Assembly: GCA_965248535.1 (NCBI GenBank)
Contig: CBDFJR010000002.1
Location: forward strand, 2,411,206-2,475,205
Origin: Phormidesmis sp.
GTDB lineage: Bacteria; Cyanobacteriota; Cyanobacteriia; Leptolyngbyales; Leptolyngbyaceae
Length of the DNA stretch: 64,000 nucleotides
Direction of reading: 5' to 3'
Shown here: positions 1-15,867 of the stretch, one piece after another
Layout: the number at the start of each line of letters is the position of its first letter
Position numbering within the stretch: the first letter of the stretch is position 1
Notes under the pieces: generated by a model
What the model saw: only the letters and a program-made list of their open reading frames with translations
The model's database searches: none
What the model was told of the DNA's origin: nothing
Program-made: the position numbers and the translations under genes

Positions 1-1428
1 GCCTCCAAACAGACTCTTGAGGTCGGTCTGAATCACGCTTGCCAAATCTCGCATCTTGGGACGATGACCAAAATGACTCAGCGCCAGGTAAACTAGCAAG
101 TCTTGGCGACGGCGATTGCTAATCTCATCCCATTCTTGCGGATTCGTGGCTTGCAAGACAATCTGAAACGCACGGCGGAGATTGCCAAACTCCGCGCTGA
201 GGGTTTCCGTTTCGGGCAATTCCTCCAGCGTGGGCAATCGTCCCCGCTCGGTGAAGAAAGTCATCAGTGGCGCGAGCTGATCCTTGTAATCTTCAAATCG
301 CTTGTTCTGAAGCTGCACTTTGGGGACGCTGACGCGCGATCGAAACCGAGCGGCGCGGAAATTCTGTGCTTGTGCCTCATCTCGAAAGACAAAATAAATC
401 CCTAGCGCAACCGGAACCGCGTCTACTCCTAGCACCTGGTCGATGTAAAGCTTGAGTTCTTCCTGGTCGTAATATTTCTGAAAGGTATTGCGGCTGGTGA
501 TAATGCCATCTCCATAGGCAATTTGGCTATTGCCCTGCGCGATCAATACCTGCGCTGCCACAATCAAAACTTGCTGGGTAAGTTCCCAAGCTTTAATTAG
601 AGCCTCTCGCCGCTCTGTTTGGGATTCAACTACATTAATGATGTAGCCCAAATTCACGACATCGGCTGTCACCAATTGGGTATCCGGTTGATAATAAGGG
701 TCCCAACCTGAACTGGGATAACCCAATTTGGCGATCCGCTCCAAATCGCCGCCCTGACCGCATCCATAGTCAAAGAATCTCGTCTCTTTCTGAAAAAGAC
801 TTGCTTCCAAGGCGAGACGGACAGGTTTAGAAAAGTCATTGCGGCTGATCGCAGCTTTGTGTCGATCGATCTTGACTTGAGAACTTTGAGAATTGAGGAG
901 CGATCGCTGAATCAGGGTATGTCCCTGAAACGCAACGCGAAACGCTGCTAATCGTTTTTCCCACGCCAAACGAGTGCCAATCCCACGCGAATTATCCAAC
1001 AACCCTAAAGCCTCTTCTTGACGAGTCAGAGCCGCAAACTGTTGGTAACGCGGATAATCTGGAGCAACGAACGTTTCCTTGCGATGCAAGATGAAAGGGT
1101 TCTCACTGCTGCTGTAGTCCCGGTGATTCACTTCCTGCTTGGCTAAATCAACCTGAAGGCTAGCGACCAGCGCTGGATGGGGATCGCTGTCAAATTCTGG
1201 ATAGGTTAAATACGAGAGGCTAGGTTTATCAAAACTAAATTTGACTAGCGTAACGGCTTCAGCAGAATCGAGGAGTTGACGCGCTTCAGCTTCGTATGTT
1301 TGTAAAAGCGGATCGAGAACTGGGACGGCTGAAATGTGAACGTAAAGCGCATCCGGCAAAAGTTTACCCACCCGACTTCGCTGGCAGGCACTGGTGATGG
1401 TGCTGAACTCATCAAGGCTACAAAACAT
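1..1428 (-). CDS. DNA phosphorothioation-associated putative methyltransferase (runs off left edge)
   Basis: Manual translation (absent from ORF track): ATG at 1428, MFCSLDEFSTITSACQRSRVGKLLPDALYVH...YPEFDSDPHPAL...NPFILHRKETFV...IDRHKAAISRNDFSKPVRLAL...FFDYGCGQGGD...GWDPYY...VVNLGYIINVVE...YGDGIITSRNTFQKYY. Open to base 1; SAM-binding motif present. Confidence 0.85.
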   Translation of the reverse strand, partial: MFCSLDEFSTITSACQRSRVGKLLPDALYVHISAVPVLDPLLQTYEAEARQLLDSAEAVTLVKFSFDKPSLSYLTYPEFDSDPHPALVASLQVDLAKQEVNHRDYSSSENPFILHRKETFVAPDYPRYQQFAALTRQEEALGLLDNSRGIGTRLAWEKRLAAFRVAFQGHTLIQRSLLNSQSSQVKIDRHKAAISRNDFSKPVRLALEASLFQKETRFFDYGCGQGGDLERIAKLGYPSSGWDPYYQPDTQLVTADVVNLGYIINVVESQTERREALIKAWELTQQVLIVAAQVLIAQGNSQIAYGDGIITSRNTFQKYYDQEELKLYIDQVLGVDAVPVALGIYFVFRDEAQAQNFRAARFRSRVSVPKVQLQNKRFEDYKDQLAPLMTFFTERGRLPTLEELPETETLSAEFGNLRRAFQIVLQATNPQEWDEISNRRRQDLLVYLALSHFGHRPKMRDLASVIQTDLKSLFGG

Positions 1429-1706
1429 TCAACACAGACTTTGGGTGACACGTCCGCCCTAACTGGAACTCATTATGCTACCGCTTGGCAAAAGTTGGTT
1501 AACTTGTACCGCTTCAGGGATCATCGTTCAGTCTATCGCTGTCGGGCTTCCTCAATCTTACCGCTATGGATGGAGTGATGAGAATTTCTTATGCGCTCCT
1601 TGAACGCTACCTGTAGTAAAATAAACCCGCTTCGATTATCTTGATCAGGATAATGTTCAATTAGCCTCGAATCATAGACAATAAATACATTAGTTCTATA
1701 TTAATT

Positions 1707-2615
1707 ATGGCAGTAGAGCAGATCACCCACAGCAATAGCGCCTCAAACCCAGTTGTGTTTGCGCGTCATGAGACCTTTCATCCCCGGTTCGGTTGGCTCA
1801 AGAAAGGGTTTGATCGCGCCTCTGCCGATTCGGAAATTTTCCTACGAGAGGATGCTCCTGTTCGCTTGGGCGTAGGAAAGAATATGGTGCGATCGATTCG
1901 CTATTGGTGTCAAGCCTTTAAGCTGCTGGAAGCTGATCAGCCCACAGAATTTGGCATTCAATTATTGGCAGAAGCAGGCTGGGACTCATTCTTAGAAGAT
2001 CCTGCCTCCTTGTGGTTACTGCATTGGAAACTACTGGAACCACCCTGTTACGCCACGACATGGGAGTTTGTCTTTAACCAGTTTCGCCCCGTCGAGTTTT
2101 CCGTTGAGGAATTGTTTAATCAGCTTTGTGAGTACCGCGATCGTATCGCTCCTCGGATGGCAGAGTCATCCTTGCGAAAGGATATTAGCTGCCTCCTGCG
2201 AACCTATACCCAACAGGTGAGCGGTAAGAATTCGGTCAGTGAAGACTCGCTAGATTGCCCCTTTTCCGAATTGGGGTTGCTCTATCCAGCAGGCAATTCT
2301 CGCACTTATGGATTTCGGATGGGGCAAAAGCCAACGTTACCCGCCGCTGTTGTCGTCTATGCCTGTTTACATTACGCCGCTCGATCGATGGAAGGACAAA
2401 AGCGAATTCCGATTGGCAAGCTGCTTTACGACCCCGGTAGCCCTGGGCAGGTGTTTCGTCTGACAGAAAGCGCCTTGGATGCTGCAATTACAGTATTCGC
2501 AGATGAGACTTCCTTGGGAATCAGCGATGCCGCCGGAAAACGAGAATTTTTCTTTAGCGATGAGCCGATCGATAAAGCAACGAATATCCTGAACACGTAT
2601 TACAGAGCGAGGTGA
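1707..2615 (+). CDS. DUF4007 family protein (SspB-like)
   Basis: FARHETFHPRFGWLKKG, LGVGKNMVRSIRYW, DPASLWLLHWKL and LDCPFSELGL are DUF4007 hallmark motifs; upstream of a large ATPase as in ssp loci. Confidence 0.85.
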   Translation: MAVEQITHSNSASNPVVFARHETFHPRFGWLKKGFDRASADSEIFLREDAPVRLGVGKNMVRSIRYWCQAFKLLEADQPTEFGIQLLAEAGWDSFLEDPASLWLLHWKLLEPPCYATTWEFVFNQFRPVEFSVEELFNQLCEYRDRIAPRMAESSLRKDISCLLRTYTQQVSGKNSVSEDSLDCPFSELGLLYPAGNSRTYGFRMGQKPTLPAAVVVYACLHYAARSMEGQKRIPIGKLLYDPGSPGQVFRLTESALDAAITVFADETSLGISDAAGKREFFFSDEPIDKATNILNTYYRAR

Positions 2616-2619
2616 GGCG

Positions 2620-5277
2620 ATGAAAAATCAATCTTTAGCAAGCTATTTCAGCCTGCATCGCCGCTACCATCGCTCTATTAATCTAGAGCGAGATTTTGAC
2701 AAGGTTGATGCGGTTGAGGGATATGTTCTGACAGAGCGATCGAGTGAAGCGCTCCAACGAATCGTGACGGCAATCGGTAATCCTAAAGCGCATCGTACCT
2801 GGACTCTCACTGGGACATATGGCTCAGGTAAATCAGCATTTGCGCTTTATCTAACTGCGCTCTGCGCTCCAGAAGACAGCTCATTCGATGAGGCGGCTTG
2901 GACGATCGCAGAACGGACACTGCCAAAAAATAGCCCTATTTTTCAGGCAATTAGAGAGTACTTGCCGACAGAAGGGTTGCTGCGGGCAGTCGTTGCGGGA
3001 GCCAGAGAGCCGCTTGGATGGACGATTATTCGAGCGCTTGCCAATGGAATAAGGCAAATCGGGTCGCGCAAGCGAAGATCAGCAGTGATACAGGCAATCC
3101 TGAATTGGGATAGTGAGGTGGCAGTGGGTCGCTGCCAGATTACAAATCAGCAAGTGTTGACGACACTCCAGCAGCTAGCCCAGATTGCAGGTATGGATAT
3201 TTTGCTGGTGATTGATGAGTTGGGCAAGAACTTAGAATATGCTTCTCATCATCGCAGCACTGAGGATTTGTACTTACTTCAGCAGATCGAAGAGTTGCGC
3301 CATCAGGATCATCAGGTCTATTTCCTGGGCTTGTTGCATCAGTCGTTTGTAGGCTACAGCGAACAGTTAACCGCGATCGAGCAAAATGAATGGACAAAAA
3401 TTCAGGGGCGGTTTGAAAATCTGCAACTAACTGAGTCTCCGAGTCAGATGACGCGGCTGATTGGCTTAGCGATCGAGCAATCTGATTCGATTTCATTAGT
3501 CTGTAATCAGCAGGCGAACCTTTGGTATCAAGCACTTCAAGCAACGTTAGTTGATCAAGAAGTATCTGCGAAAGTTTTAGCCTCAACGTATCCACTGCAT
3601 CCCATTACGGCGTTAGTCCTACCGCTGTTATGCACTCGCTATGCCCAAAATGATCGCTCGCTCTTCACCTTTTTAACGAGTGATGAACCTCACGCCTTGA
3701 CTCGATTCCTTCAAACTCACGAGCTAGAAGAAGATGAGTTTTCGACGCTTAAACTGCATCAGCTATATGATTATTTCGTGGAATCTGTTGCAGGGTTGGC
3801 TTCTCAAGTAAATCTTCAGCGCTGGGTTGAAATTCAGACTCTAATTCAGGATGCGCGATCGCAAGATGAAGACATTCTCAAGGTACTGAAAACCATCGGA
3901 ATTCTTAACCTAATTGCTTCAACAGGAACACTCAAGGCAACACCTGACTTGGTTTCATTGGCACTGTGCGATCGTCCAAATGATAAAACAGCGTTAAAGC
4001 ATTGGCGTAAACAAATTGACTTGCTGAAAAAACGCGGCACGATTATCTACCGCTCTCAGGCAGACGAACTGCGGATTTGGGAAGGATCAGATTTCGACGT
4101 AGAGGCAGAGATCGTTGAACACATTGAAAAGTCGCAGCGAGTCTCCCTTGCTGAGCTTTTGACGGCGACTCATCCGCTCAAGCCAATGGTGGCACAGCGC
4201 CACTACACAACAACCGGGAACCTTCGCTACTTTGAACAACGCTATGTGGATAGCCTGACTTCATTGGGGGATCTGCGAACGTCGCTACCTGGTACAGATG
4301 GGCTAATTCTTTATTGGCTTGATATTGATGCTCCACGAGAGATCCCTAATCAGACTGCTGATGGTAAACCTCTGATCTTAATCACAACGAACCAGCTTGA
4401 TCTACTTCGGATTCGATCGCAGCATTTGCAAGCGCTTAAAACAATTAAAGATGCACCAGAGTTAACGTCCGATGGTGTAGCAAAGCGAGAAGTGAGGCAT
4501 CGCCTAGTGTTGGCTGGTAGCTTGCTCAATGAGACCATGCAGCAAGCATTTAGTTGGGCAGAAAAACAGAATCGGTGTTGGGTCGATGGAGAACGACACA
4601 AGATTTGCAGTACTCGTGAGTTTCAAGCTGCTCTTTCTGAATTGTGCGATCGCACCTATCCGCTAGCTCTACGTCTCGACAATGAATTGATCAATCGTCG
4701 GGATTTAACGTCTCAAGGTGCAAAAGCGCGGCGAGAACTGATCGAAGAAATGCTGAAATCTGCTCATCTTGAAAGATTAGGGCTAGAAGGGTACGGTCCT
4801 GAAGTGGCGATGTACTACTCAGTTTTAGAGGCAACCGGAATTCATCGACAGGAAGCGGGTGAGTGGGATTTCTATCCGCCTCGTCTAGAGTCTGGAGTAG
4901 AAACAGTTTGGGAAAGAATAGAATCTTTTTGCATCGCATCAGTTGATCAACAGCGATCGCTAGATTTGCTCTATCGAGAATTAGAATATCCGCCCTATGG
5001 CGTGAAGGCAGGCGCAGTGCCGCTGCTGCTGGCGGCGTTCTTACTTCACCGAGCCGAGGATATTGGGGTTTACAAGGATGGAACGTTTATTCCTGTTCTT
5101 GGTCCTGAACATTTTGAATTGTTGGTGAAAGCGCCTGAGCGGTTCTCAGTTAAACATTTTGAGATTGCTGGACTGCGATCGCAGGTCTTCCAAAAGCTAG
5201 AGGTGGTGCTGAAGTCTCCCAATAGCAAAACTCCATCGGGAGTGCGGAATGCGTCTTTGTTAGCGATTGCGAGTTAG
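2620..5277 (+). pseudogene. SspC-like P-loop ATPase, probably C-terminally truncated
   Basis: RSINLERD, Walker A GTYGSGKS, Walker B LLVIDELGKNLE, EWTKIQGRF, YPLHP, QNDRSLFTFL. Ends abruptly at RNASLLAIAS* with its stop overlapping the stop of the convergent HNH gene. Truncation is inferred from my recollection that homologues are longer. Confidence 0.65.
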
Positions 5278-6719
5278 CTTCGAGAGTAAGCCCAGCCAGC
5301 TTCAAAGCCTAAGCTCGTAGCGAGAGACATCAAGGGTTGTATGGTAGAACTGTAAGCCTTGCTGAGTTTCTCAAAGTCAGTTAAATCATCTTTCGTATTC
5401 AGTCTCAAATCAGAAATATAGGAATCAATAAACTTGTTCCAGGTTCTATCTTTGCTCATCTTTTCTTTCCAGACGATTAAGCCAAGATGATGCACTCTCA
5501 CAAAGGAATCAAAATAGACTGACGAAGGAATTATTTTAGATTTTGAAGAATTAACATCGCCAAATGTTGGAATTAGATTCCAGATTTGATCATGTGCCAC
5601 GAATGACCAGGGAAGATAATGATCAAGAGAAAGTTTAGAATCTGCTCTCAAAGGGCGATTTGAGTAAATGCAGCTAATTTCGTCTGTATGCTCTAGAACT
5701 GCTTGCCAGTACTTTGTTTGGGAAGTTAAAGCGCCTCTTCTAATTTGAGGAAAAAGTTTATTTGAGATTGCAGGTGTACTTGGATTTCGGCTTTGCATAT
5801 ATTGCAGCCATTCCCAAGCAACCCATCCTCTTACAATGGAATAATTCATTCTAATGTAAGAAGTCCATTCGGGAGATAGGTAAATGGATTTGCATGAATT
5901 TGGGGAATCACCATCAAGTTTGTAAAGCGGTTTAGCTGTATCGAAATGCTGTTCAGCTAGAAGCATGATTATTTCATTTTCGATATGATCGTTTCTTACA
6001 GCGTCTCGGTTCTGGCTCTTGTAAGCTTTCAACTGCTGAGATAGAAAAGGTGTAATCAGTCGAAACGGTACATATCTCATTAACGAATCTTTCCCTATCA
6101 AAAGGCTGTCTAGGTTTCGTTTTGAGAGTTCTTCTCTAAGCAGTTCTTTCTCTGATTCGTCGAAAGCTGGCTTATCAAGATTTAGAGCAAGAGAGTCTAG
6201 CTTGATAGCAATTTTGTCTTGTGTGCCAAATGATAATTTGAAATAAGTATGCGGATACCAAGCATTGACTAATATTTCAATCAGCAACTCTCTAAAGCTG
6301 ATTGGCGACTCAGCATCAAAGTTTCGTCTTCTCAGAATGTCGAGCAAGGAGAGAAAGAAAACGTACTTATAAGAAGTGGTTGTTTTATCGAAAAGTCTGG
6401 AGAAAGCAGCAACGTTTAAGCCTTCGTTTTCAGGAAGCCACCCGAAGCCCTCACCGACAGGATTTGTCCATGTTTCTGATGAACTGGCTCCTATAGACAA
6501 ATCGGCGGCATATAGGCTGATAAACTCGTCGGCTGCATCAGGATTAATCGACCTGAGTGCTGCAATGATGCCTTGAACAGTTTCCGAGTTAGGATCTCTG
6601 ACTTCAGCGACCCATCGATGAACGTTAGACCGAGCAATACTAAGCTTTTCAGCCAATTTACCCTGGCTGATGCTGTGACTTGTCAAAACTTGCCCTAGAA
6701 CCTTGCCTGCTTTTCCCAT
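5274..6719 (-). CDS. XRE-family HTH fused to HNH endonuclease domain
   Basis: Likely start MGKAGKVL at 6719. N-terminal ISQGKLAEKLSIARSNVHRWVAEVRDP (XRE HTH); C-terminal CIYS...SLDHYLPWSFVAHDQIWNLIPTFGDVNSSKS (HNH). AT-rich with no GCGATCGC seen. Confidence 0.85.
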   Translation of the reverse strand: MGKAGKVLGQVLTSHSISQGKLAEKLSIARSNVHRWVAEVRDPNSETVQGIIAALRSINPDAADEFISLYAADLSIGASSSETWTNPVGEGFGWLPENEGLNVAAFSRLFDKTTTSYKYVFFLSLLDILRRRNFDAESPISFRELLIEILVNAWYPHTYFKLSFGTQDKIAIKLDSLALNLDKPAFDESEKELLREELSKRNLDSLLIGKDSLMRYVPFRLITPFLSQQLKAYKSQNRDAVRNDHIENEIIMLLAEQHFDTAKPLYKLDGDSPNSCKSIYLSPEWTSYIRMNYSIVRGWVAWEWLQYMQSRNPSTPAISNKLFPQIRRGALTSQTKYWQAVLEHTDEISCIYSNRPLRADSKLSLDHYLPWSFVAHDQIWNLIPTFGDVNSSKSKIIPSSVYFDSFVRVHHLGLIVWKEKMSKDRTWNKFIDSYISDLRLNTKDDLTDFEKLSKAYSSTIQPLMSLATSLGFEAGWAYSRS

Positions 6720-6757
6720 GCTTCTGATCGTGTCAGAGAAGTTTGTTTCCGTAAATA

Positions 6758-6808
6758 GAAGCCAATTGGCTTCCAACTCGTGTTATTGTGGAAACTAATT
6801 GGTTTCCA
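6758..6808. promoter_or_regulatory. Two related palindromes in the divergent promoter (candidate XRE operators)
   Basis: GAAGCCAATTGGCTTC (6758-6773, perfect) and TGGAAACTAATTGGTTTCCA (6789-6808, one mismatch); centres 33 bp apart. Confidence 0.6.
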
Positions 6809-6835
6809 TTTATTTAACCTTCAGGATGAACTTCG

Positions 6836-7027
6836 ATGCGATACGAAGACCTTCTGCACCCTTGGATAATCGTTCGTCACCTTCCAAATCTGCAAAATCT
6901 CACAGTGAAGCGGTTTCGCCGTCGGAATGATGCTGATGAGTGCCTGAAAGCCCTCCGCCGTCTTTCCCCTAACGGGGAATTCATCATCATGTTTGATGGT
7001 GCGGTTCAAACACAGGAGAAGCTCTAA
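6836..7027 (+). CDS. Small conserved cyanobacterial hypothetical protein (63 aa)
   Basis: LHPWIIVRHLPNLQ...RFRRRNDA resembles a small cyanobacterial family I associate with divergent XRE genes. Confidence 0.65.
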   Translation: MRYEDLLHPWIIVRHLPNLQNLTVKRFRRRNDADECLKALRRLSPNGEFIIMFDGAVQTQEKL

Positions 7028-7284
7028 TGACCAGAGTTAGACATTTTCAGGAGTTAGATTATGCTTTGACTCTGAGAATCCTTCATGATACGAGGGGCTG
7101 TGATAGAAGCACGATTCAAGTTAAAGACTTAACTGGTAAAGTGTTTGAGACGTGGCATCGTAGGTATAGGCTGTGGCGCAATCCAATTCATGGAACAGCT
7201 AAAAACCTTGCTGCAATCAAGACTATCTATAACGCGATCGACATTGACGATTACGTTAGAAAAAACGGTTACTACGATTATTAG
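7027..7284 (+). CDS. Hypothetical protein (85 aa)
   Basis: ATG overlaps the previous stop (TAATG coupling); no recognised motif. Confidence 0.45.
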   Translation: MTRVRHFQELDYALTLRILHDTRGCDRSTIQVKDLTGKVFETWHRRYRLWRNPIHGTAKNLAAIKTIYNAIDIDDYVRKNGYYDY

Positions 7285-7299
7285 CCTTTCTTCTCAGTC

Positions 7300-7551
7300 G
7301 ATCGCTGCACTCCTTGCTATTGATAGAGCGCTTCTTTCTACTGAAGAATTGCTCCTTTGCCATAGTGGACAGTTTCTTCGTGCTGATGGACAGTCTCTTC
7401 GTGCTGATGGACAGTTTCTTTGCAACGATGGACAGTTTCTTCGTACTGATAGATAGTTTCTTCATGACTGATAGATTGTTTCATGTCGCCGATCGAATAG
7501 CTCTTGCTGCTGATGCACTATTTCATTAGCCAGAAGAACGGCTCCTTTGGT
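7300..7551. repeat. Degenerate 21-nt tandem array (about 12 units, 4-6 well conserved)
   Basis: Core units: 7365 gtggacagtttcttcgtgctg, 7386 atggacagtctcttcgtgctg, 7407 atggacagtttctttgcaacg, 7428 atggacagtttcttcgtactg, 7449 atagatagtttcttcatgactg (22 nt), 7471 atagattgtttcatgtcgccg. Periodicity continues weakly on both sides. Confidence 0.85.
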
Positions 7552-7639
7552 AAAAAGAAACGTTCCTACCGTGAGATAGAAACGTTGTCTAATTAACCCG
7601 ATTGAAGCAAGTTGAACAAAGGTTGTCCGATTCAGGTAA

Positions 7640-8134
7640 TCAGGAAACCCCAGCAGGAATCGGTTGTGAGCTAGACTCAACCGTGTCTTTCTTGTTGCGA
7701 CGAGCAAACTGCTGCTTGAGTTGTTCCACAACAATCTTCATTCCTGGCATATCATCGTGAGCTTTGGCAGCATCGTATACTTTCAAAGAAGCGGTATACG
7801 CCTCACATTGAGCGGTGAAATAGGTGTCATCAACTAGGCTGTGCAGTTCAGTTAGAGCCATCAGCACCGGATAGAGATCTTCCATCAACTTCACGTCTTT
7901 CTGCATCTCTTCTACGTCAAACGATCGCGGTAAGCAATCGGTATGTTGTTGCGCGGCATCCAAACAATTGAGCATGAAACCACGACTGCGATCGCCAACT
8001 TTAGGCGCGGCTTTGCGATCGTCTACGGTCAAATGCACCAAAAAGGGCATGGCTTGCTTAATCGTGTCGATCGCTGCCATGACAGCTTTGCGATCTTCTG
8101 CGCTTAACGTGGCACTAATTCGGTTTGATGTCAT
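7640..8134 (-). CDS. Conserved hypothetical, likely helical protein (164 aa)
   Basis: NRISATLS...PFLVHLTVDDRK...GDRSRGF...LPRSFDVEEM...DDT...EAYTASLKVY pattern of a widespread uncharacterised family. Confidence 0.8.
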   Translation of the reverse strand: MTSNRISATLSAEDRKAVMAAIDTIKQAMPFLVHLTVDDRKAAPKVGDRSRGFMLNCLDAAQQHTDCLPRSFDVEEMQKDVKLMEDLYPVLMALTELHSLVDDTYFTAQCEAYTASLKVYDAAKAHDDMPGMKIVVEQLKQQFARRNKKDTVESSSQPIPAGVS

Positions 8135-8231
8135 ATAAATTACACAAAAAACAGCTTGTACTTAGACGGTACTGCTCCTGTTATATCGTTGGGAAAGTTA
8201 AAACCCCTGTGATCAAGCTCACTGCACTTGT

Positions 8232-8546
8232 GAAATCGGTTTATCTTTTAGCCGCCGCACTCGCTATGCACCTAATGACGCGCTTCTCAGAACGCTTGTG
8301 CTTGCATCTGTGTCAACTCGGATGGAGTTTCAAGAATTTTTAGCAAAATTGCATCAGAAATACGGCTTTATCATTGGCGATCGCCAAGCCGAAGCTCTGA
8401 TCAACTCCGGTGATGCCGATCGTGAAGACTTCGTGGCAAATGCCGAACGGCTCGAACGTCGCCTTGCCAGTATCGGGCTGCTCAAACGCCTCTCCGATGC
8501 CTGTGCCTACGTCCAAAACCCCTTTGCCTCAGAGGTGAAATCATGA
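8232..8546 (+). pseudogene. 3' remnant of an SspG/DptG-like gene
   Basis: Frame upstream of the 82-aa ORF reads EIGLSFSRRTRYAPNDALLRTLVLASVSTRMEFQEFLAKLHQKYGFIIGD...LERRLASIGLLKRLSDACAYVQNPF. This looks like a protein C-terminus coupled (ATGA overlap) to the FtsK-domain gene. Family identity inferred from position and the RLSD..AYV tail. Confidence 0.6.
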
Positions 8547-11500
8547 AAACTATCGAATTGATTGGTCAAGTCGCGGCTGACTTTCTCAAGCGATCGATTC
8601 AAACCGATGAAGCCAGCGAAGGGGTTGCACGATTCCTGCTCAATCGTCTAACTGCCCAACAGATCGCGGCAGTCTGCAAAACGATTCTGCAAGACTCCGA
8701 GCTTTCTCCGCTCATCAAAATTCAAATTCCGCGCGATTTAGTCGAAAGCTACAATTTACCTGAAGAAATTCTCACTGTTGAATCAACCGTTCACTTACGA
8801 CATTCAGCGTGCGATCGCCCTGCGCTCCTGCTAGTCAATATTAGTGACGACCAAGCCCAATCCCTAAAGGATATTACTTCAGTCGGCGCTCAAGAATTGA
8901 GAGGGCAAATTGACTGTTGGATTGACCTAGCCGCGAGGGATTTAGCAATTCCGTCTGAGCAAATCGAGTATTGGCGTAAAGCTCTCAACGGACTGCAAAA
9001 AGTTGGCACCCCTAGCTTAGAAAATTTTGCGGAATTCATTGTTCAGACGCGATCGCGCATTCTTGACCAAAGCCTTCCCGTCGTCGATGCGCTGGGCTGG
9101 GCACTTCCCGCGCTGCGCCTTCCTCGTGATTCTGGTTACTTTCGAGCGATTCCTGAAACCCAGTGGGGACAAACTCAGCGTTGGGAAAACCTATTTCAGC
9201 AAGCCTTCACAAAACGCGCTTGTCTATTGCTAAAGCAAACGCCTAACCGTAAACCGATCGATGAGCAAGAGCTACAAACTGCCTTCGATAAAGTAAAAGA
9301 TGATATCCCTGCGATCGCTCATCCCATTATTCAATCATTCATCGCGAGTTCCGCAGGCTGGAATCCTCATGCTGAAAATCTCGCTCAGTTCGAGTGGGAA
9401 TCTGAAAATATCAACACACTTTTCTCTGGCTTACAGGCACAGAAAACAGACATTGCTTCTCTCACGCTAGAGTTTTTCAATGATGAGTATCCCGATGTTC
9501 TGACTGAAGAGGAGTCGCAGTACATCAATGCACTCAAGAAGAAACGTAGTAAGCGTGAGGCACTAGACGAGGATCGGGAGTTCTATGATGCCCATCGTCC
9601 AGAGCTTGAAGATAATCCTAAACTTAAAGCCAAGTGGGATAAATTCGTCTACGGGCAACCCCTTGAATGCACAGATTTCATGATTGGGTTACTCCAAGCC
9701 TTTGAGCGCCTCTTTAACCAAGCAGAGACGGTTGATGGTGTTAAATCGCTCAAAATCGAGACGCAGAAGAAAGCTGGCAAAAGTAAATGGCTAGAACTGA
9801 ATGCTGATGTGGGTCGATATTTCTGCACCCGCTATCGAGGAATTGAACAACTAACTGCCGCACACATTGAATGGGACACTCACTGGCTATTTAAGTACGA
9901 AACCCTGCTCGAAGAAACTCAGAAAAAGCAGAAGTCGAAATATCGTGAGAATACCTCCGCTGCAAAAACCGCAACAGAAATTAAGTTCTACATAGAGATG
10001 CGGGATAGCGCTAAGACATTAATTGCAAAAACTCAACTCGTTTGGCGCTGTAACCCGAATGCGATCGGGATGGAGTTGAGCAGTGATTTAGCAAGGCTTC
10101 TGAATAAATCTCCCTTTCAGCTTTCAACAGTGGCGCGAGAGCTAGTTAGCAGAAAGGGGCGTTTGCAGGGAATTTCCCTATCTGATGTCGGAACTTTGAT
10201 GGCTACATACAGCAAAGATCGCGGTTCCTTAATCGGTAAATATGAAAATAAGGACGATCTCGCCAAGATTCTACCTAAACAACTTAAACAAGCCGTTGCA
10301 GAAGGTCGCCTCTCGAAGGAAGGGGCAGATGCGATCGCAGATGCTTGGAAAGCTTTTACAGATCGATATCGGGCTGCGATCGCAGGGTTTACATCCGCAG
10401 ACGGACGAGGCATCGCCAATCCAGAATTGCTACACCAGTGCGAAGCTTACAAGGCGCTGCTCAACACGATCCTCACTCATGTCAAAGGCGATCTCAATCG
10501 CATCAACTTGTACCAACCTGTGTTGCGTTTAGGCTGTATTCAAGTTGAACGCGGTAAACCTGCGGCGATCGTTGCGCCTTGGCATCCTCTGAGATTAGCC
10601 TCTCTAGCAATCAAGGTTCGTCAACTCGCAGGCTTGCTCCAATACATTATCTCCACCCCAGAAGTGAATTTTGGAGATTCTCGCCTATTCTTTGCCGACT
10701 TACGAAACGAACTCGATCACCCTTACTATCCCGAAGTCTGCGTCGGCTACCAAGGGCAGCAACCCGAACTTCTATCTGTCTCCGATACGCTCAATGACTA
10801 TAGTTTGATGGAGCGCCCGACACGAGACGAAAGCGATCGCACCACTAATGAGAACCCTGCCGAAGCAGCCGATCGATTACTTGGCATCATTCGTCGCTAT
10901 GTCGAACTAATGCCCCACGAGAAGGCTAATCTGAGCGTGGTGCTGTACCAAACCGACTCGATTAAACTGCCTCAAGCGATCGTCCATAAACTGAGCGAAG
11001 AACTTCAAGACGATCGTGAGGAAGTTCGCTGTCAGGTTATTCTGCGTCATCGAAATGGACAGAAACTCACTCAACTCTACGAGCAAATGCTAGAGAGTTC
11101 TGATGCTGACCCAGATGCGTTTATTGCTAGCGAAGTTTCTCAAGACTTTATGGCAAGACTTCGCATTTCAGTCATGTCTCATGATGTCCCGACCACTAAC
11201 CCTAGAGAAGGCAAGTTTGCTGACATCGTGTTTCTACAAGATGCAATTTCCCGGCAAGCGAAAGTTGTCTGGCAACCGTCTCCTTTCGATAGCGCCGCAG
11301 CCGATCTTCTAATTCACTCCCCTGCGCGTTGGTCGCGTAAGCGCCCTTCTGCGACAGATGAACTCAAGTCCACAGTTTACCTTACCTGCCCTAAGCAACC
11401 CGTAGTCGGACAGATCTACCTCGACCTCGTGTACAGCATTATTGAGGGCGAAGACTGCTCTCCTGAGCAACACTTTCTACCTGCTCGTCAGATTTCTTTT

Positions 11501-13873
11501 CAAGACGAAACCACAAAGACAACCTTTGATGAAAGTCATCGTTTAGGAGAATGGGTCGTCAACTACGATGATCTCTTAGAAAGGAGACAACTGGTTAATC
11601 AAGGCGTAAAGGTCATTCGCTACCAGCAGCATCGTACCGACGAACGCAATTTCTTAGTCTCTTCAGATGCGTCATTGAATGTTCTCAAAGTGCTAGTAAG
11701 GAAGCGACTCGGTGATCTCAATCTGGCACTGGAAAGTGATCGCATTGATAAACTTGTAGAGCGCTTGATTAACGATGCCAATGCAGTTTCTGGTGACATT
11801 GTGTTGCGAGCTGCGAAATGCGGCAGATTTGCGAGTGAACTGATGGGCGTTGTTCTTAGCAAGGCACTCATTACAGCAGAAATGGGAGCGCAAAATCCCA
11901 TCGGCTGGTACTTCCTGGATGACTATGCCTCCTGGCTCGGACAGAAAGAGGGGCAAATTGCTGACATGATGGCAATTTCACCGCAGTACATTGATGATGA
12001 GCCTGTTCTCAAAGTCATTGTTTCAGAAGCAAAATATGTTGATGTCGCTGGCTTAGCCGATGCCCGCAAGACTTCTCAGAATCAATTAAGGCAGACGGTC
12101 GATCGTATTGCCGATGCTCTGTTCATTAGTCCTGGTCGCCTCGATCGCGATCTTTGGCTTTCTCGTCTCAGCGATCTTCTCATTGATGGCATTGAGTTTA
12201 GCTCCAACAATAAAGTGAATATTGAGCAGTGGCGTGAACAGATTCGCTCAGGGACTCTTCGCATCGATTTATCTGGCTATTCACACGTTTTCGTCACGGG
12301 CACGAATGATAGCAATGCTGAAGGAGAACGATCGCCCATTCCCAAAGTGCAGCGATGTTTTCAAGAAGTCTTCGATCGTGAATCTGTTCGCAAGCTGGTT
12401 CTGGCTTACGAGTCGGGACAGTCGTTGTTTCCCACACGAGAGCAAATCGGCGATGACAAGCCGTGGACAGTGACTCAAGCCTTGCCACCTGCAGATCGAG
12501 TCACCTGGGTATTAGAGATTGAGAAAGTAGAAGCCGTAAATGCTACTCCCTTAGTAGCGGATGTTACTCCATTAGTAGGAAAGGAAGATAACCAGACAGA
12601 GAACCCTGACCAGCTAGTTCAGCTAACCCTTCCTGATGAGCCACTCCAACCTACACCCGCCGATTCTTCTATCGTTTCAAATGTTCAGGCTCTCCATAGT
12701 TGGGCAAGTCCGGCACTTGTTGCGTGGTGGCAGCAAGGACAAGCACAAAGCAATCAGAGTGATGCAGCAGCAGAAAAATGGCTAGAAGAAACTGCCGGAA
12801 AATTGCGGACGGCATTACTGGGATACAGCCTACAAGCCAAAATTGAAGGCAAGCGATTGACTCCCAATGCGGCGATCGTGCGATTCAAAGGTTCTGATCA
12901 TCTGAAGCTAGAGGACATTGAGAAGAAGCGATCGCAACTCTTAACCACTCATTCCCTAAACGTAATCAGCCTCTATGGTCAGCCAGGTGAAATTGTGGTT
13001 TCGGTTGCCCGTCCTCAGCGCCAAACCATCTCTCTACGTGAGGTGTGGGAGAAACGAAAAGTCAATCGCTCTTCTTCAGGAATTAACCTCAGTTTTGTCC
13101 TTGGAGTCAAAGAAATCGATGGCGAACTGCTCTACCTCAACCTAGATAGTAGCTTCGAGAATCTGGAGCAACACGCTCCTCACACCTTAATTGCTGGAGC
13201 AACGGGAAGCGGAAAATCAGTTCTGCTACAAAATCTCCTGCTCGATATTTGTGCAACCAACTCGCCTAAACTCGCCCAGATCTACCTCATTGATCCCAAG
13301 ATGGGTGTCGATTATGCCAATATTAGCGACCTTCCTCATCTCAAAGAAGGCATCATTATCGAGCAAGAACGCGCGATCGAGATTCTGGAATTTCTAGTCG
13401 AAGAAATGGACAATCGGTACCGTAAATTCCTTCCTCAGAAAGCAAAATCTTTGCAGGATTACAATTCCAAAATGCCTGAGCAGGATCGACTCCCGGTACT
13501 TTGGCTTGTTCACGATGAGTTTGCCGAGTGGATGCTGATCGATGAGTACAAAACGGCTGTATCTGCTGCTGTACAGAGATTAGGTGTGAAAGCGAGAGCC
13601 GCAGGAATTCATCTCATTTTTGCCGCACAGCGTCCTGATGCCAATGTGCTTCCAGTGCAGCTTAGAGATAATTTAGGCAATCGACTAATCCTAAGAGTCG
13701 AAAGTGTCGGCACTTCAGAAATCTCACTCGGACAAAAGGGTGCAGAGAACCTCTTGGGTAAAGGACATTTAGCGGCTCGTTTAACAAACCAATCCGATCT
13801 GATTTACGCTCAAGTTCCCTTCCTTGGGGATGAAGACATGGCTACAGTCGCAGAAATTATCAAACAGCAGTGA
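8543..13873 (+). CDS. Large FtsK/SpoIIIE-domain ATPase (SspH/DptH-like PT restriction component)
   Basis: 1776 aa. C-terminal PHTLIAGATGSGKS, LIDPK, LVHDEFAE, ARAAGIHLIFAAQRP, GAENLLGKGH. Internal IADMMAI...VSEAKY resembles a PD-(D/E)xK motif. Located in a PT locus. Confidence 0.8.
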   Translation: MKTIELIGQVAADFLKRSIQTDEASEGVARFLLNRLTAQQIAAVCKTILQDSELSPLIKIQIPRDLVESYNLPEEILTVESTVHLRHSACDRPALLLVNISDDQAQSLKDITSVGAQELRGQIDCWIDLAARDLAIPSEQIEYWRKALNGLQKVGTPSLENFAEFIVQTRSRILDQSLPVVDALGWALPALRLPRDSGYFRAIPETQWGQTQRWENLFQQAFTKRACLLLKQTPNRKPIDEQELQTAFDKVKDDIPAIAHPIIQSFIASSAGWNPHAENLAQFEWESENINTLFSGLQAQKTDIASLTLEFFNDEYPDVLTEEESQYINALKKKRSKREALDEDREFYDAHRPELEDNPKLKAKWDKFVYGQPLECTDFMIGLLQAFERLFNQAETVDGVKSLKIETQKKAGKSKWLELNADVGRYFCTRYRGIEQLTAAHIEWDTHWLFKYETLLEETQKKQKSKYRENTSAAKTATEIKFYIEMRDSAKTLIAKTQLVWRCNPNAIGMELSSDLARLLNKSPFQLSTVARELVSRKGRLQGISLSDVGTLMATYSKDRGSLIGKYENKDDLAKILPKQLKQAVAEGRLSKEGADAIADAWKAFTDRYRAAIAGFTSADGRGIANPELLHQCEAYKALLNTILTHVKGDLNRINLYQPVLRLGCIQVERGKPAAIVAPWHPLRLASLAIKVRQLAGLLQYIISTPEVNFGDSRLFFADLRNELDHPYYPEVCVGYQGQQPELLSVSDTLNDYSLMERPTRDESDRTTNENPAEAADRLLGIIRRYVELMPHEKANLSVVLYQTDSIKLPQAIVHKLSEELQDDREEVRCQVILRHRNGQKLTQLYEQMLESSDADPDAFIASEVSQDFMARLRISVMSHDVPTTNPREGKFADIVFLQDAISRQAKVVWQPSPFDSAAADLLIHSPARWSRKRPSATDELKSTVYLTCPKQPVVGQIYLDLVYSIIEGEDCSPEQHFLPARQISFQDETTKTTFDESHRLGEWVVNYDDLLERRQLVNQGVKVIRYQQHRTDERNFLVSSDASLNVLKVLVRKRLGDLNLALESDRIDKLVERLINDANAVSGDIVLRAAKCGRFASELMGVVLSKALITAEMGAQNPIGWYFLDDYASWLGQKEGQIADMMAISPQYIDDEPVLKVIVSEAKYVDVAGLADARKTSQNQLRQTVDRIADALFISPGRLDRDLWLSRLSDLLIDGIEFSSNNKVNIEQWREQIRSGTLRIDLSGYSHVFVTGTNDSNAEGERSPIPKVQRCFQEVFDRESVRKLVLAYESGQSLFPTREQIGDDKPWTVTQALPPADRVTWVLEIEKVEAVNATPLVADVTPLVGKEDNQTENPDQLVQLTLPDEPLQPTPADSSIVSNVQALHSWASPALVAWWQQGQAQSNQSDAAAEKWLEETAGKLRTALLGYSLQAKIEGKRLTPNAAIVRFKGSDHLKLEDIEKKRSQLLTTHSLNVISLYGQPGEIVVSVARPQRQTISLREVWEKRKVNRSSSGINLSFVLGVKEIDGELLYLNLDSSFENLEQHAPHTLIAGATGSGKSVLLQNLLLDICATNSPKLAQIYLIDPKMGVDYANISDLPHLKEGIIIEQERAIEILEFLVEEMDNRYRKFLPQKAKSLQDYNSKMPEQDRLPVLWLVHDEFAEWMLIDEYKTAVSAAVQRLGVKARAAGIHLIFAAQRPDANVLPVQLRDNLGNRLILRVESVGTSEISLGQKGAENLLGKGHLAARLTNQSDLIYAQVPFLGDEDMATVAEIIKQQ

Positions 13874-13880
13874 GTCAACC

Positions 13881-15074
13881 ATGCCCCACAGCAAGTTAGA
13901 GAATAATTCACCTCAAAAGCCCATCTATCTGGACTATCACGCGACTACGCCGACCGATCCGCGAGTTGCAAGTTTGATGCTGCACTACATGACTGAGGAA
14001 TTTGGCAATGCTAGCAGCACCGATCATGAATATGGCGATCGCGCTGAAGCTGCCATTAAACAAGCCGCCAAAAACGTTGCCGATTTAGTCGGAGCTTCAC
14101 CACGAGAAATCATCTGGACATCAGGCGCAACTGAAAGCATAAATCTTGCCATCCAAGGCAGTCTTTCTCCCAATCCGCAAAAGCCGCATCGAATCGCTCT
14201 GCCTCCGATCGAACATAAAGCCGTTCTCGACACCTGCCATGCTCTTGAAAAGCGCGGTTGGGCAGAGCTAATTTATTTGCGAGTCGATTCTAAAGGTAAG
14301 CTCGACCTCGACCATTTAGAGCAAGTTTGTGCTGAGGGAGTGTCTTTACTCTGCGTCATGGCTGCAAATAACGAGATTGGTAACATCTACCCAATTCAGG
14401 CGATCGGGCGAATTGCTCAACGTCACAATATTCCGTTTCTTTGCGATGCCTCCCAAGCCGTTGGTAAGATTCCAATTCAGTTTGAGGAGTGGGGCATTAC
14501 TTATCTCGCAATCTCTGGGCATAAGCTTTACGCTCCTAAAGGAGTTGGGGCGATCGTTGTGCGTAAAGGACATCATTTAGAGCCAATGATGTTTGGGGGC
14601 GGGCATCAGAAGGGAATGCGATCGGGGACGCTCAACGTTCCAGGAATTGTGGGATTGGGAGAGGCTTGTCGGCTGCGATCGCTAGAAATGGAAGCCGATG
14701 AACGTGCGATCGCGACCCAGCGTGACAGGCTCCAAGCTTTACTTCTAGAGAAGTTCTCCAATCTAGTCATCAATGGGGATGTAGAACACCGTTTAGCGGG
14801 CAATCTTCATCTTTCAATTCCTGGAATTCCTAACAGTGCCGTCATCGCTAGAATTCGTCACCAGTTGGCAATTTCAACGGGTTCGGCTTGTTCATCAGGC
14901 ATCGAGTCGCCTTCTCATGTGCTTCAAGCCTTACGCTTGCCAGAGGATATCGTCGAAGGCGCGTTCCGAATTGGACTCGGAAAATTTACGACGGATGATC
15001 AGGTTAACAAAGCATTTGAAGTTCTCTCTGATGCAATTACTCAGGTTCAGCAGGTTCTCTGTGCGATTTCTTAA
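13881..15074 (+). CDS. Cysteine desulfurase (IscS/DndA/SspA-like)
   Basis: IYLDYHATTP, TSGATES, NNEIG, SGHKLYAPKGVG (PLP lysine), RSGTLNVPG, STGSACSS (catalytic Cys). Start taken as ATG 13881. Confidence 0.93.
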   Translation: MPHSKLENNSPQKPIYLDYHATTPTDPRVASLMLHYMTEEFGNASSTDHEYGDRAEAAIKQAAKNVADLVGASPREIIWTSGATESINLAIQGSLSPNPQKPHRIALPPIEHKAVLDTCHALEKRGWAELIYLRVDSKGKLDLDHLEQVCAEGVSLLCVMAANNEIGNIYPIQAIGRIAQRHNIPFLCDASQAVGKIPIQFEEWGITYLAISGHKLYAPKGVGAIVVRKGHHLEPMMFGGGHQKGMRSGTLNVPGIVGLGEACRLRSLEMEADERAIATQRDRLQALLLEKFSNLVINGDVEHRLAGNLHLSIPGIPNSAVIARIRHQLAISTGSACSSGIESPSHVLQALRLPEDIVEGAFRIGLGKFTTDDQVNKAFEVLSDAITQVQQVLCAIS

Positions 15075-15157
15075 AGTCGGGGCGTTTACCCTTCGGGAAC
15101 TTGCAAAGCAAACCGCACCCGTCAGACATCCTGTAATCAGGGAATAAGTTACTCTTG

Positions 15158-15604
15158 TCAAGGCGAAGATAAGATCTCGTCCAAAAGCATGAGAGGTAAA
15201 TTAGGAACGTTGCGGAAGGCACGATCGTTGCTCAGGAAAACTGTACAGTTCGCACTTAAAGCAGTAGCTGCATGAATGGCATCAGGCGTTTTCAGATTGG
15301 TGGTCGCTCGCAGATTAGCGGCATCCCGTAAAATAGAACGCTGAATCGGAATCAGTTGAATGTCTGAGTTTTCCAGTAGCTGTTCGTAGTCGTTCGCAAG
15401 GACTGTATTTGTCTGTCTCAGAGGGAAGACGAGCGTTTCCATGAGAGTTAATTCACTGGTTACGATCTCAAGTTCGCTTGCCTGAAATTTTGCCCAGAGA
15501 GGTTGAAGCAGGTCAAAATAGGTTGGATTCGCTTCGACGGTGTAAATAATGATCTGAGTGTCGATATAAATACTGGCAGCAGTAGGTAGTGCTAGCGGTC
15601 CCAT
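15158..15604 (-). CDS. vapC: PIN-domain VapC-type toxin
   Basis: IYIDTQIIIY...TSELTLMETLV...LKTPDAIHAATAL...FLSNDRAF. Confidence 0.9.
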   Translation of the reverse strand: MGPLALPTAASIYIDTQIIIYTVEANPTYFDLLQPLWAKFQASELEIVTSELTLMETLVFPLRQTNTVLANDYEQLLENSDIQLIPIQRSILRDAANLRATTNLKTPDAIHAATALSANCTVFLSNDRAFRNVPNLPLMLLDEILSSP

Positions 15605-15831
15605 GAATTTCTTTCAGCAGCAAGGTCACGATCGAGGTCTTCTGTGGAGCGGTAAGGATGGCGACTGCGGATGTCTTCAAGGAGTTTCAGAACATTGCGC
15701 CGTCCAGTGGGAATGGTTTGAGGTAGCACGACGATGACTTCAACGTCTTCGCCAACAGAACCTTCAGGAACTTCAATTTCAATTTTGTTTCCTGGCAAAA
15801 CTTTAGTCATAATCCGAACGGTTTCTTGCAT
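15592..15831 (-). CDS. Putative antitoxin partner of VapC
   Basis: 79 aa, overlaps the toxin start; TKVLPGNKIEI...VEVIV beta-rich N-terminus and ERNSWD tail. Confidence 0.75.
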   Translation of the reverse strand: MQETVRIMTKVLPGNKIEIEVPEGSVGEDVEVIVVLPQTIPTGRRNVLKLLEDIRSRHPYRSTEDLDRDLAAERNSWDR

Positions 15832-15867
15832 CGTGATTTTCCTTTAAGGGTTCTTCATTTTACGGTT

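Follow-up and report, generated by a model that had tools for sequence, protein, structure and literature searches.

Immunity based on phosphorothioate (PT) modification of DNA is known with three kinds of effector, namely DndFGH/SspFGH, SspE/DndI and PbeABCD, and with one kind of antagonist, the sulfur-binding domain (SBD) nucleases, which attack PT-DNA. The SBD-HNH enzymes ScoMcrA, SprMcrA and EcoWI have a reader domain followed by a C-terminal HNH domain, and both they and Hga are PT-reading nucleases, according to the accessible parts of PMC10602919 and PMC7461809. Restriction by the known SBD nucleases is directed at PT-DNA, and that by Hga extends to the Ssp-type CpsCA mark (accessible part of PMC10602919). 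On the effector side, SspE and DndI combine a DUF262 nucleoside triphosphatase (NTPase) with a DUF1524 HNH-like nickase and possess a hydrophobic PT-sensing site, as stated in the accessible part of PMC11662687. Here we analyze a stretch of 64,000 nucleotides from Phormidesmis sp. (contig CBDFJR010000002.1, positions 2,411,206 to 2,475,205; called the window throughout), in which a nuclease gene lies inside an ssp locus without the PT writer gene sspD.

The window nuclease shares with the SBD-HNH enzymes the order of a reader domain and a C-terminal HNH domain, but it is without sequence similarity to SBDs, has an added N-terminal helix-turn-helix (HTH) domain and contains an HNH_4 (Cas9-type) core. 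With moderate confidence, and on the strength of structural models, we read it as a candidate solitary PT-reading (type IV-like) nuclease directed against PT-bearing incoming DNA, in which an HTH that tunes its own expression would be joined to an SBD-like reader and an HNH domain.

Domain architecture and control of the nuclease

A first-pass annotation, made from the sequence alone, had proposed a minus-strand XRE-HNH nuclease gene, and both an HTH and an HNH_4 domain were found in it. The start at TTG 6776 was not borne out; homologue alignment places it at ATG 6719 (MGKAG...), which is conserved in 37 of 37 aligned homologues (alignment A1). The AlphaFold model of the whole nuclease has a pLDDT (predicted local distance difference test) of 80.5. 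HTH residues 1-77 matched best the controller protein (C-protein) C.BclI (2b5a; Z 9.4, 70 residues aligned, root-mean-square deviation (rmsd) 3.0; VIA-align), and four more C-proteins, C.AhdI, C.Esp1396I and C.Kpn2I among them, scored Z 8.3-8.5 amid many XRE regulators. Pfam HTH_3 reached 20 bits on the nuclease, under its cut-off of 23. Pfam HNH_4 was matched at E 2.5e-9 (37.4 bits versus a cut-off of 22), and D366, H367, N381 and N390 of the HNH core are invariant in the 37 sequences of A1. The nuclease profile was aligned to the Cas9 HNH domain 6o56_A at E 6.4e-5, and the spacings of 14 from H to N and of 9 from N to N equal those in the aligned Cas9 segment.

The middle domain was folded alone with 50 homologues (pLDDT 87.8) and compared with 48,161 PDB chains by VIA-align. 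Ranked first among them was the SBD of Hga with PT-DNA (8h0l_B; Z 7.4, rmsd 3.7, 123 of 146 residues aligned, 14% identity in the aligned region). Also in the top 8, which thus held all three solved SBD types, were three ScoMcrA SBD entries at Z 6.3-6.6 and the SprMcrA SBD at Z 5.8. Within this domain, S116-Y117-K118 and W154-Y155-P156-H157 are invariant in A1. The sulfur cavity of ScoMcrA is formed by Pro165, His116, Arg117 (Lys in most homologues) and Tyr164, according to the accessible part of PMC6224610, and Y117-K118 and Y155-P156 of the nuclease recall its H116-R117 and Y164-P165 in the same order. Structure prediction of the central domain, suggested earlier as a check, gave the sulfur-binding domain of Hga as the best match; the match is of moderate strength, and a Cdc6 winged helix scored Z 7.2. 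From the models, the middle domain is probably a sulfur-reading domain.

Other proteins with this domain were also observed. The middle domain alone matched 1,563 protein clusters at 50% identity, mostly of proteins of ~375 amino acids (aa) and some of them domain-only. Its nearest clusters in the ESM Atlas are unnamed proteins of 243-256 aa, with look-alikes of this size seen in Bacillota and Pseudomonadota as well. Among the 401 genomes of an even class sample, nine (G304, G328, G352, G233, G098, G438, G229, G239 and G333) have open reading frames (ORFs) of ~221-256 aa that carry the SBD-like middle domain without HNH. Some distant SBD-like/HNH proteins (P0155, P0181) end in a Peptidase_S24 domain of the LexA/CI self-cleaving type, suggestive of a switch triggered by damage or RecA in these proteins. 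Two stand-alone ORFs of 100-109 aa in the genome of the window (G000) resemble the nuclease in its HTH domain only, at 46-53% identity (L002, G000:C5:2097011-2097247; L003, G000:C2:456580-456825), and in G028 (L015) such an HTH-only gene adjoins a homologue of o63, the small gene divergent from the nuclease gene in the window (Table 1).

Two operator-like palindromes precede the nuclease start (Table 1). Both lie at the same distances in the related loci L022, L023 and L120, despite saturated synonymous sites in the coding sequence. When at most 2 mismatches were allowed, GTTATC-N6-GATAAC boxes were found upstream of the start in 45 of 60 loci with the fused HTH versus 0.55 loci in shuffles, and the boxes began 83-93 nt (38 hits) or 50-54 nt (23 hits) upstream of the start codon. 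The 6 loci with the recognition helix RSNV[HY]RW (RP[IV]VFRW in the others) all lack this box, and 5 of them, the window included, have perfect palindromes of their own at those positions. Operator boxes therefore co-vary with the HTH recognition helix, and the paired operators offer a ready handle on controller function. In 10 loci where the nuclease form has no HTH of its own, it is immediately preceded on the same strand by a separate XRE gene of 79 aa. The one upstream region of these that was read, that of L104, has a pair of TAGAAAAGTTTTCTA-type boxes, and no BLASTP alignment was obtained between the fused HTH and the separate 79-aa HTH of L104. As far as sequence can tell, paired boxes with an HTH are the layout of C-protein-controlled restriction genes, and the HTH would bind the boxes and regulate its own gene.

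The replaced segment, its age and its surroundings

In a congener from the same genus (G006; locus L012), the methyltransferase gene is followed by sspB, sspC (1172 aa), sspD, sspE, sspF, sspG, sspH and sspA, and the PADLOC models are matched end to end. The similarity between the window and this locus (blastn, alignment) stops at 5270 and restarts at 8232, and window 5271-8231 (2,961 bp) stands in place of 7,207 bp in the congener. Compared with G006, the window lacks sspD, sspE and sspF altogether, ~290 codons at the end of sspC and ~440 at the start of sspG. A replacement of about 3 kb had been placed at 5274-8231, and the aligned edges agree with it within 4 bases. The overlap of stops described there is also correct: the TAG of the sspC-like ORF (2620..5277) is at 5275-5277, the TAA of the minus-strand ORF is at 5274-5276, and they overlap in the TTAG of 5274-5277. 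Identity to G006 is 63-66% in the sspB-sspC flank and 81-85% in the sspH-sspA flank.

From the PADLOC profiles, SspA and SspB are whole in the window, while SspC ends at profile position 873 of 1104 (residues 18-884 correspond to positions 2-873 of PDLC02781). The window has neither SspE nor a full SspF+G+H set, as SspH and the last 82 aa of SspG alone remain; residues 2-76 of the SspG piece correspond to profile positions 424-498 of 498 (E 4.9e-33). No match to SspD, the writer resembling PAPS reductases, was found in the window or in the 99.76%-complete genome, either with a single-protein query or with PADLOC PDLC02782, the model that matched 55 of the 401 sample genomes, and DndC was not found in this genome. 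Therefore, no known PT writer is present, which agrees with the first-pass view that the segment replaced the core of the PT writer.

A near-HIP1 site GCGATTGC had been noted at the left junction. It is present at 5263-5270, but it does not mark the junction: the same GCGATTGC occurs in the intact sspC of G006 in the alignment, so it is conserved sspC coding sequence and was rejected as a mark of recombination. The reported lack of a transposase and of terminal repeats was confirmed by repeat, PHROG and Rfam searches. Repeats at the segment ends are merely short pairs at chance level, and Rfam gave no family at gathering score on window 1-16000. PHROGs gave no match for the small genes o63, o85 and o164 (Table 1) and weak HTH matches alone for the nuclease. 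A promoter and terminator scan returned the same counts as in shuffles.

The age of the arrangement can be judged from three relatives. The inverted HNH-o63-o85 order and the same sspG junction are also found in a Pseudanabaenaceae isolate (L022), in Egbenema (L023) and in a genome of another GTDB family (L120, G185), in which sspC is cut at residue ~884, 415 and 141, respectively. The four nucleases form one clade with full support in a quick IQ-TREE analysis. Pairwise ratios of nonsynonymous to synonymous substitution (dN/dS; NG86) among these four genomes are 0.056-0.065 for the HNH nuclease, at a synonymous divergence (dS) of 1.2-1.8. The ratios are 0.040-0.046 for SspH, 0.028-0.075 for the SspG stump (81 codons, dS ~1, in genomes that all carry the truncation) and 0.079 for the sspC stump (versus L022, 208 codons), while o63, o85 and o164 give 0.20-0.29, 0.11-0.16 and 0.17, respectively. 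To judge from these ratios, the HNH gene, SspH, the SspG remnant and the sspC stump are under purifying selection. Taken with such selection, the junctions shared at dS > 1 argue for a locus that is old, stable and rewired, not decaying. A selected SspG stump of 82 aa together with SspH also suggests a minimal working sub-module of SspFGH. On the other hand, o164 and the 21-bp repeat are missing from L023 and L120 and are matched together, at 77% DNA identity, in an unrelated place in G009, which has further copies of the repeat; they are therefore a later addition.

The nuclease has many relatives. At least 619 were found at E <= 0.001 among the 8,000 candidates scored, each named one of the top 120 is cyanobacterial, and 191 GTDB species genomes encode a relative. 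The locus counts given here refer to the best 80 homologous loci unless stated otherwise. In 68 of the 80, ssp or methyltransferase genes or their fragments are within the flanks, and in 64 of these 68 the nuclease gene and the ssp genes share a strand; the usual position of the nuclease gene is between sspC/D and sspA. The normal home of the family is therefore the ssp locus, and the nuclease is no stranger breaking into a PT operon. The HNH gene is indeed AT-rich, as had been observed, with a GC content of 0.407 compared with 0.475-0.503 for sspB, sspC, sspH, sspA and the methyltransferase gene. However, the GC content of this gene is lower than that of the flanks in all 78 homologous loci for which 4 kb or more of flank is available (median difference -8.4 points), and AT-richness is therefore a family trait and no sign of recent arrival. 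The HIP1 site GCGATCGC is absent from the 1,446 bp of the gene, as also reported, but its absence was rejected as a sign of foreignness: the rate in the window is 59 per 64 kb (0.92 per kb), so ~1.3 sites are expected in the gene and zero is unremarkable. The 909 bp of sspB also lack GCGATCGC. The earlier picture of a foreign cassette that broke a PT operon therefore fails on the ssp-resident family, the family-wide low GC content and the arrangement shared at dS 1.2-1.8.

Table 1. Features of the ssp locus in the window (coordinates are those of the window).
Feature	Coordinates	Strand	Basis and remarks
PT-associated putative methyltransferase gene	1..1428	-	NCBIfam TIGR04096 E 3.3e-186; continues past window start
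sspB (DUF4007)	1707..2615	+	Pfam DUF4007 E 8.7e-95; PADLOC SspB E 1.3e-116
sspC, 3'-cut, 885 aa, ~290 aa missing	2620..5277	+	PADLOC SspC PDLC02781
Replacement segment, 2,961 bp	5271..8231	.	blastn vs L012
HTH / SBD-like / HNH nuclease gene, 481 aa	5274..6719	-	start ATG 6719, stop 5274-5276
XRE / C-protein-like HTH, residues 1-77	6489..6719	-	structural alignment (VIA-align)
Central winged-helix, SBD-like domain, residues ~97-326	5742..6431	-	domain model, VIA-align
HNH catalytic core, residues 350-398	5526..5672	-	Pfam HNH_4; D366, H367, N381, N390 invariant
Proximal operator-like palindrome GAAGCCAATTGGCTTC, perfect 16-mer	6758..6773	.	starts 54 nt upstream of ATG
Distal operator-like palindrome TGGAAACCAATTAGTTTCCA	6789..6808	.	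starts 89 nt upstream of ATG, 28 bp upstream of o63 start
o63, small conserved protein, divergent from nuclease gene	6836..7027	+	homologues in ~30 ssp loci; no Pfam, PADLOC or PHROG family
o85, small ORF, start overlapping o63 stop	7027..7284	+	in L022, L023 (two copies), L120; no Pfam, PADLOC or PHROG family
Tandem repeat, 21 bp x 5	7366..7472	.	Tandem Repeats Finder score 135
o164, conserved hypothetical, 164 aa	7640..8134	-	common to window and L022 only; no family
SspG C-terminal 82 aa, own ORF, stop overlapping sspH start	8298..8546	+	PADLOC SspG
sspH (FtsK-like), full length, 1776 aa	8543..13873	+	PADLOC SspH, residues 1-1774 = positions 1-1766 of 1766; Pfam FtsK_SpoIIIE
sspA / dndA-type cysteine desulfurase gene	13824..15074	+	PADLOC SspA E 1.1e-140, DndA E 6e-141; Pfam Aminotran_5

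Deletions close to the nuclease gene are common in the family. An sspA or sspF gene cut at its 5' end starts within 150 bp (<=150 bp) of the nuclease stop in 15 loci, with at least 12 different cut points, and near-complete B, C, D and A genes are found in only one of the 80 loci (L090). This pattern is most simply read as a gradual erosion of dead ssp genes, with selection removing the deletions that enter the nuclease gene. In L104 and L105 all genes are whole, and the layout is methyltransferase, then sspB, sspC and sspD, then o63 on the opposite strand, a separate HTH gene, the HNH gene and sspA. Homologues of o63 also occur in intact ssp loci without an HNH gene, where the next gene encodes an SF2 helicase (L017, L018), and the HNH gene occupies the place of SspE or of the helicase next to o63. 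In Nostocales, the nuclease gene is followed by a helicase fragment and a gene for a 615-aa GHKL (MORC-like) ATPase. Other frequent neighbours are LAGLIDADG_2, Rpn-like (DUF4351) and Uma2 genes. The nuclease is not covered by any PADLOC 2.0.0 model, and no description of an Ssp-linked nuclease of this kind was found in full-text literature searches that covered listings, abstracts and cited passages.

Several further observations were made in these loci. Nine loci (L029, L034, L035, L047, L060, L066, L067 and L075, with a fragment in L036) have, immediately before the nuclease gene and on the other strand, a 318-aa ORF that carries LAGLIDADG_2 and a ROS/MUCR-like zinc finger; it may be a homing-type endonuclease that rides with the nuclease. 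Independent replacements of sspD and its neighbours by the nuclease gene are seen in FGH-type loci, with the cut points SspC941/SspH50 in L116 (G321), SspC942/SspF140 in L067, SspF83 in L079 and a scrap of SspH 72-107 in L114. The PT-associated methyltransferase gene adjoins the ssp locus in most relatives, and a second gene, ~42% identical to its first ~175 residues, adjoins it in most loci (for example, L023 15563-16087). In L018 (G039), two transposase ORFs of 437 aa, at 4807-6120 (+) and 8728-10041 (-), lie inside an otherwise whole ssp locus; the DDE_5 assignment comes from a scan of one of the two, and sspC of this locus was matched in two pieces ~1.1 kb apart.

Downstream of the locus, directly after sspA, window 15158-15831 (minus strand) holds a gene for a 148-aa PIN-domain protein (Pfam PIN E 4.3e-20) and a 79-aa ORF. 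This ORF, just upstream of the PIN gene, overlaps the PIN start with its end, and the two are probably a toxin-antitoxin pair of the VapBC type. Window 15868-20298 (minus strand) then encodes a 1057-aa WD40-repeat protein and a 364-aa protein with NNH5 and NA-iREase1 (NACHT-associated) domains. With these genes nearby, the ssp locus therefore belongs to a wider conflict-system island.

Weighing the readings

If the nuclease is a solitary PT-reading enzyme, the segment would be an effector module from another variety of cyanobacterial Ssp locus. The module would have recombined, in inverted orientation, into an SspE/FGH-type locus long ago, and the PT writer SspD would have been removed thereby. 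The HTH would dimerise on the two palindromic boxes in its own promoter, the region of which would be common to the divergent o63-o85, and would tune its own level. The middle winged-helix domain would dock on the DNA backbone, probably at a PT, and the Cas9-type HNH domain would cut the DNA. In this process, the enzyme would act beside the retained SspG C-terminal piece, SspH, SspB, SspA and the methyltransferase. PT reading by the middle domain, the direction of PT dependence and operator binding are the parts that we infer. A conserved enzyme of such build in a host without the writer is most simply taken for a solitary PT-reading nuclease.

The relation between the nuclease and the writer was evaluated in two sets of genomes. 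For the fused-HTH form, the set consisted of 50 genomes behind loci L022-L072 (L059 was left out, L058 being the same genome). SspD was matched at E <= 1e-10 in 10 of the 50 and at full length in 4; of the other 6, 3 are fragments and 3 match weakly and in part within longer ORFs. No SspD match was obtained in G000, G185 or the genomes of L022 and L023. In the class sample of 401 genomes, SspD was found in 55, SspC in 68 and the middle domain in 49. SspD is present in 44 of the 52 SspC-positive genomes that have no intact nuclease and in 1 of the 13 genomes with the fused-HTH form (open frame 461-516 aa); 19 domain-only or broken-ORF matches were excluded from the counts of forms. SspD is full length in all 7 of the relatives' ssp loci without the nuclease. 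On the tree, fused and unfused forms are interspersed, and supported branches force at least 6 changes between them.

The first-pass annotation had also proposed that acquisition of the nuclease selects for loss of host PT modification. One part of this stands: the fused-HTH form is tied to SspD-less genomes. Across the family it fails, as the nuclease coexists with whole SspA-D loci, and therefore the proposal cannot hold for the whole family. A family-wide exclusion of PT loci is likewise contradicted, by the routine co-occurrence of the separate-HTH form with SspD and by the fused-HTH locus L109. The family is thus compatible with the writer and only the fused-HTH form is tied to SspD absence, and due to kinship among the genomes, these contrasts are indicative only.

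A number of points weigh against a solitary PT-reading nuclease. In the structural comparison, Cdc6/ORC winged helices, with Z up to 7.2, fill the rest of the top 8 for the middle domain, and the Z scores of 5.8-7.4 for the SBD matches are in the range that VIA-align calls common. Neither the whole model nor the middle domain had a Foldseek match in PDB at E <= 0.001. When profiles A1 and A2 were searched against all PDB sequences up to E = 10, no SBD chain was matched; the matches are the Cas9 HNH domain and XRE repressors alone. The resemblance to the ScoMcrA cavity residues is by pattern only. Among the sample genomes, the shorter form with a separate HTH (371-411 aa) occurs with SspD in 9 of 17, in 8 of them at full length. 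The nuclease is beside whole SspA-D in L090, L104 and L105, and also in L084 save for SspB at the contig edge, and L109 is a whole ssp locus with the fused-HTH form itself. The SspD contrast is inflated by the kinship of the genomes compared. Controllers of the C-protein type usually go with nucleases that endanger unmodified DNA. A nuclease that kills CpsCA-bearing DNA should not sit in whole SspABCD loci; in such loci, its target may be a different PT context, its activity may be restrained, or PT may serve it as a self mark. Furthermore, canonical SBD-HNH genes are 'rarely coupled' to dnd loci, as the accessible part of PMC7461809 puts it, unlike the window nuclease and its family, which are embedded in ssp loci.

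These points lead to the rival that survives best, which we regard as possible but doubtful: the nuclease may be the ordinary restriction arm of a PT-based restriction-modification system, an analogue of SspE/DndI that attacks unmarked phage DNA. Host PT would then be the self mark sensed by the reader, and the controller HTH would delay expression; in the window, the orphan would survive without the writer, either kept low by the fused HTH or gated by its partners. The whole loci just named, with a canonical layout in L104 and L105, are as this rival predicts, and so are the SspD counts for the shorter form (9 of 17, 8 full length). It also draws on the separate 79-aa XRE gene directly upstream in 10 loci, with its own palindrome pair in L104, on the strand shared with the ssp genes in 64 of 68 loci, and on the place of SspE or the helicase next to o63 that the HNH gene takes. 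SspE and DndI are themselves PT-sensing single-protein nickases (accessible part of PMC11662687). Nevertheless, full-length SspD is missing from 46 of 50 and from 12 of 13 fused-HTH genomes in which the nuclease gene is intact, and in the window's clade the gene appears to be under strong purifying selection without the writer. There, an effector dependent on host PT would be useless and a cutter of unmarked DNA would be lethal. The whole loci favour the restriction arm, while the conserved orphans favour the solitary PT-reading nuclease, and the two could hold together if the PT context that the reader recognises differs from that of the host.

We consider it unlikely that the middle domain is a plain winged-helix DNA binder without sulfur reading, and the protein a selfish or homing-type HNH nuclease whose gene would persist in ssp loci since deletions of dead ssp genes halt at its borders. 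Such a reading gains from the Cdc6/ORC winged helices that score as high as the SBDs, from the lack of a sequence-level link to SBDs, from the 15 loci in which a 5'-cut ssp gene lies <=150 bp from the HNH stop at no fewer than 12 cut points (>= 12), and from the LAGLIDADG_2, Rpn-like (DUF4351) and Uma2 genes that are often nearby. However, the three solved SBD types stand together at the top of the structural list, and the invariant Y-K and Y-P pairs fit the pattern of the SBD cavity. The tie to ssp genes is also far tighter than defence-island clustering would give, the strand is conserved, and the gene is at a fixed place in whole operons.

That a recent foreign AT-rich cassette, by way of a defence-system swap, broke a working PT operon of this strain is very improbable. 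In its favour, the 7 same-genus genomes searched have no DNA-level match to the SBD-like and HNH parts and the G006 operon is whole, the GC content is 0.41 versus 0.48-0.50 and the unequal flank identities (63-66% versus 81-85%) make the locus a mosaic, but this rival is largely refuted by the same sspG junction and inverted order in L022, L023 and L120, which at dS 1.2-1.8 make the event old (dS > 1 excludes a very recent exchange), and it is also opposed by the low GC content in 78 of 78 loci, by the lack of mobility genes and terminal repeats, and by the apparent selection on the remaining genes.

Comparison with known systems

To our knowledge, Hga is the only reported SBD that reads Ssp-type CpsCA. 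As the top structural match to the middle domain, Hga would be a precedent for the reading of Ssp-type PT by the window nuclease (accessible part of PMC10602919); it differs in its PD-(D/E)XK nuclease and in having no HTH. SspE and DndI, as described in the accessible part of PMC11662687, are alike in being single-protein effectors inside a PT locus with a His-Me finger nuclease. SspE also has the same operon place as the nuclease, and in the congener G006 it is SspE that is found there. In contrast to SspE/DndI, the nuclease is without DUF262 or an NTPase, has another reader fold and an HTH controller, and persists without the writer.

The C-protein systems (C.BclI, C.AhdI and C.Esp1396I) are similar in the HTH fold and the two upstream palindromes, and many relatives of the nuclease have a separate small HTH gene upstream. 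The putative controller of the window, on the other hand, is fused to the nuclease, and XRE repressors generally score nearly as well as the C-proteins. When compared with SspABCD-SspFGH, the window has kept sspH and the 3' end of sspG, which appear to be under selection, while SspF, most of SspG and SspD are missing. MADS systems use methylation as a self mark. SspG and SspH weakly match mad7 and mad8, the other tested proteins have no MADS match, and membership in MADS was ruled out by the far higher scores of the PADLOC Ssp models.

Tentatively, the controller-regulated SBD-like/HNH nuclease may be an unnamed third restriction arm of Ssp, alongside SspE and SspFGH and common among cyanobacteria, and fusion to the HTH may have made it a self-contained unit able to persist through, or even to drive, the loss of the writer. 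If this were true, the window would hold a stable, writer-less hybrid that still defends the cell with a changed logic of self and non-self, in which foreign PT is read or methylation serves as the self mark. The nuclease family would also explain half-dismantled cyanobacterial ssp loci with an intact nuclease. Its reach is considerable, with a relative in ~190 cyanobacterial species genomes, and the family usually outlasts the writer genes. Whether PT switches the nuclease on or off decides how self and non-self are told apart in such systems. Set beside the known effectors and antagonists of PT, the family seems to join both ideas: an SBD-like reader with HNH is found inside the writer's own operon, under a control like that of restriction genes.

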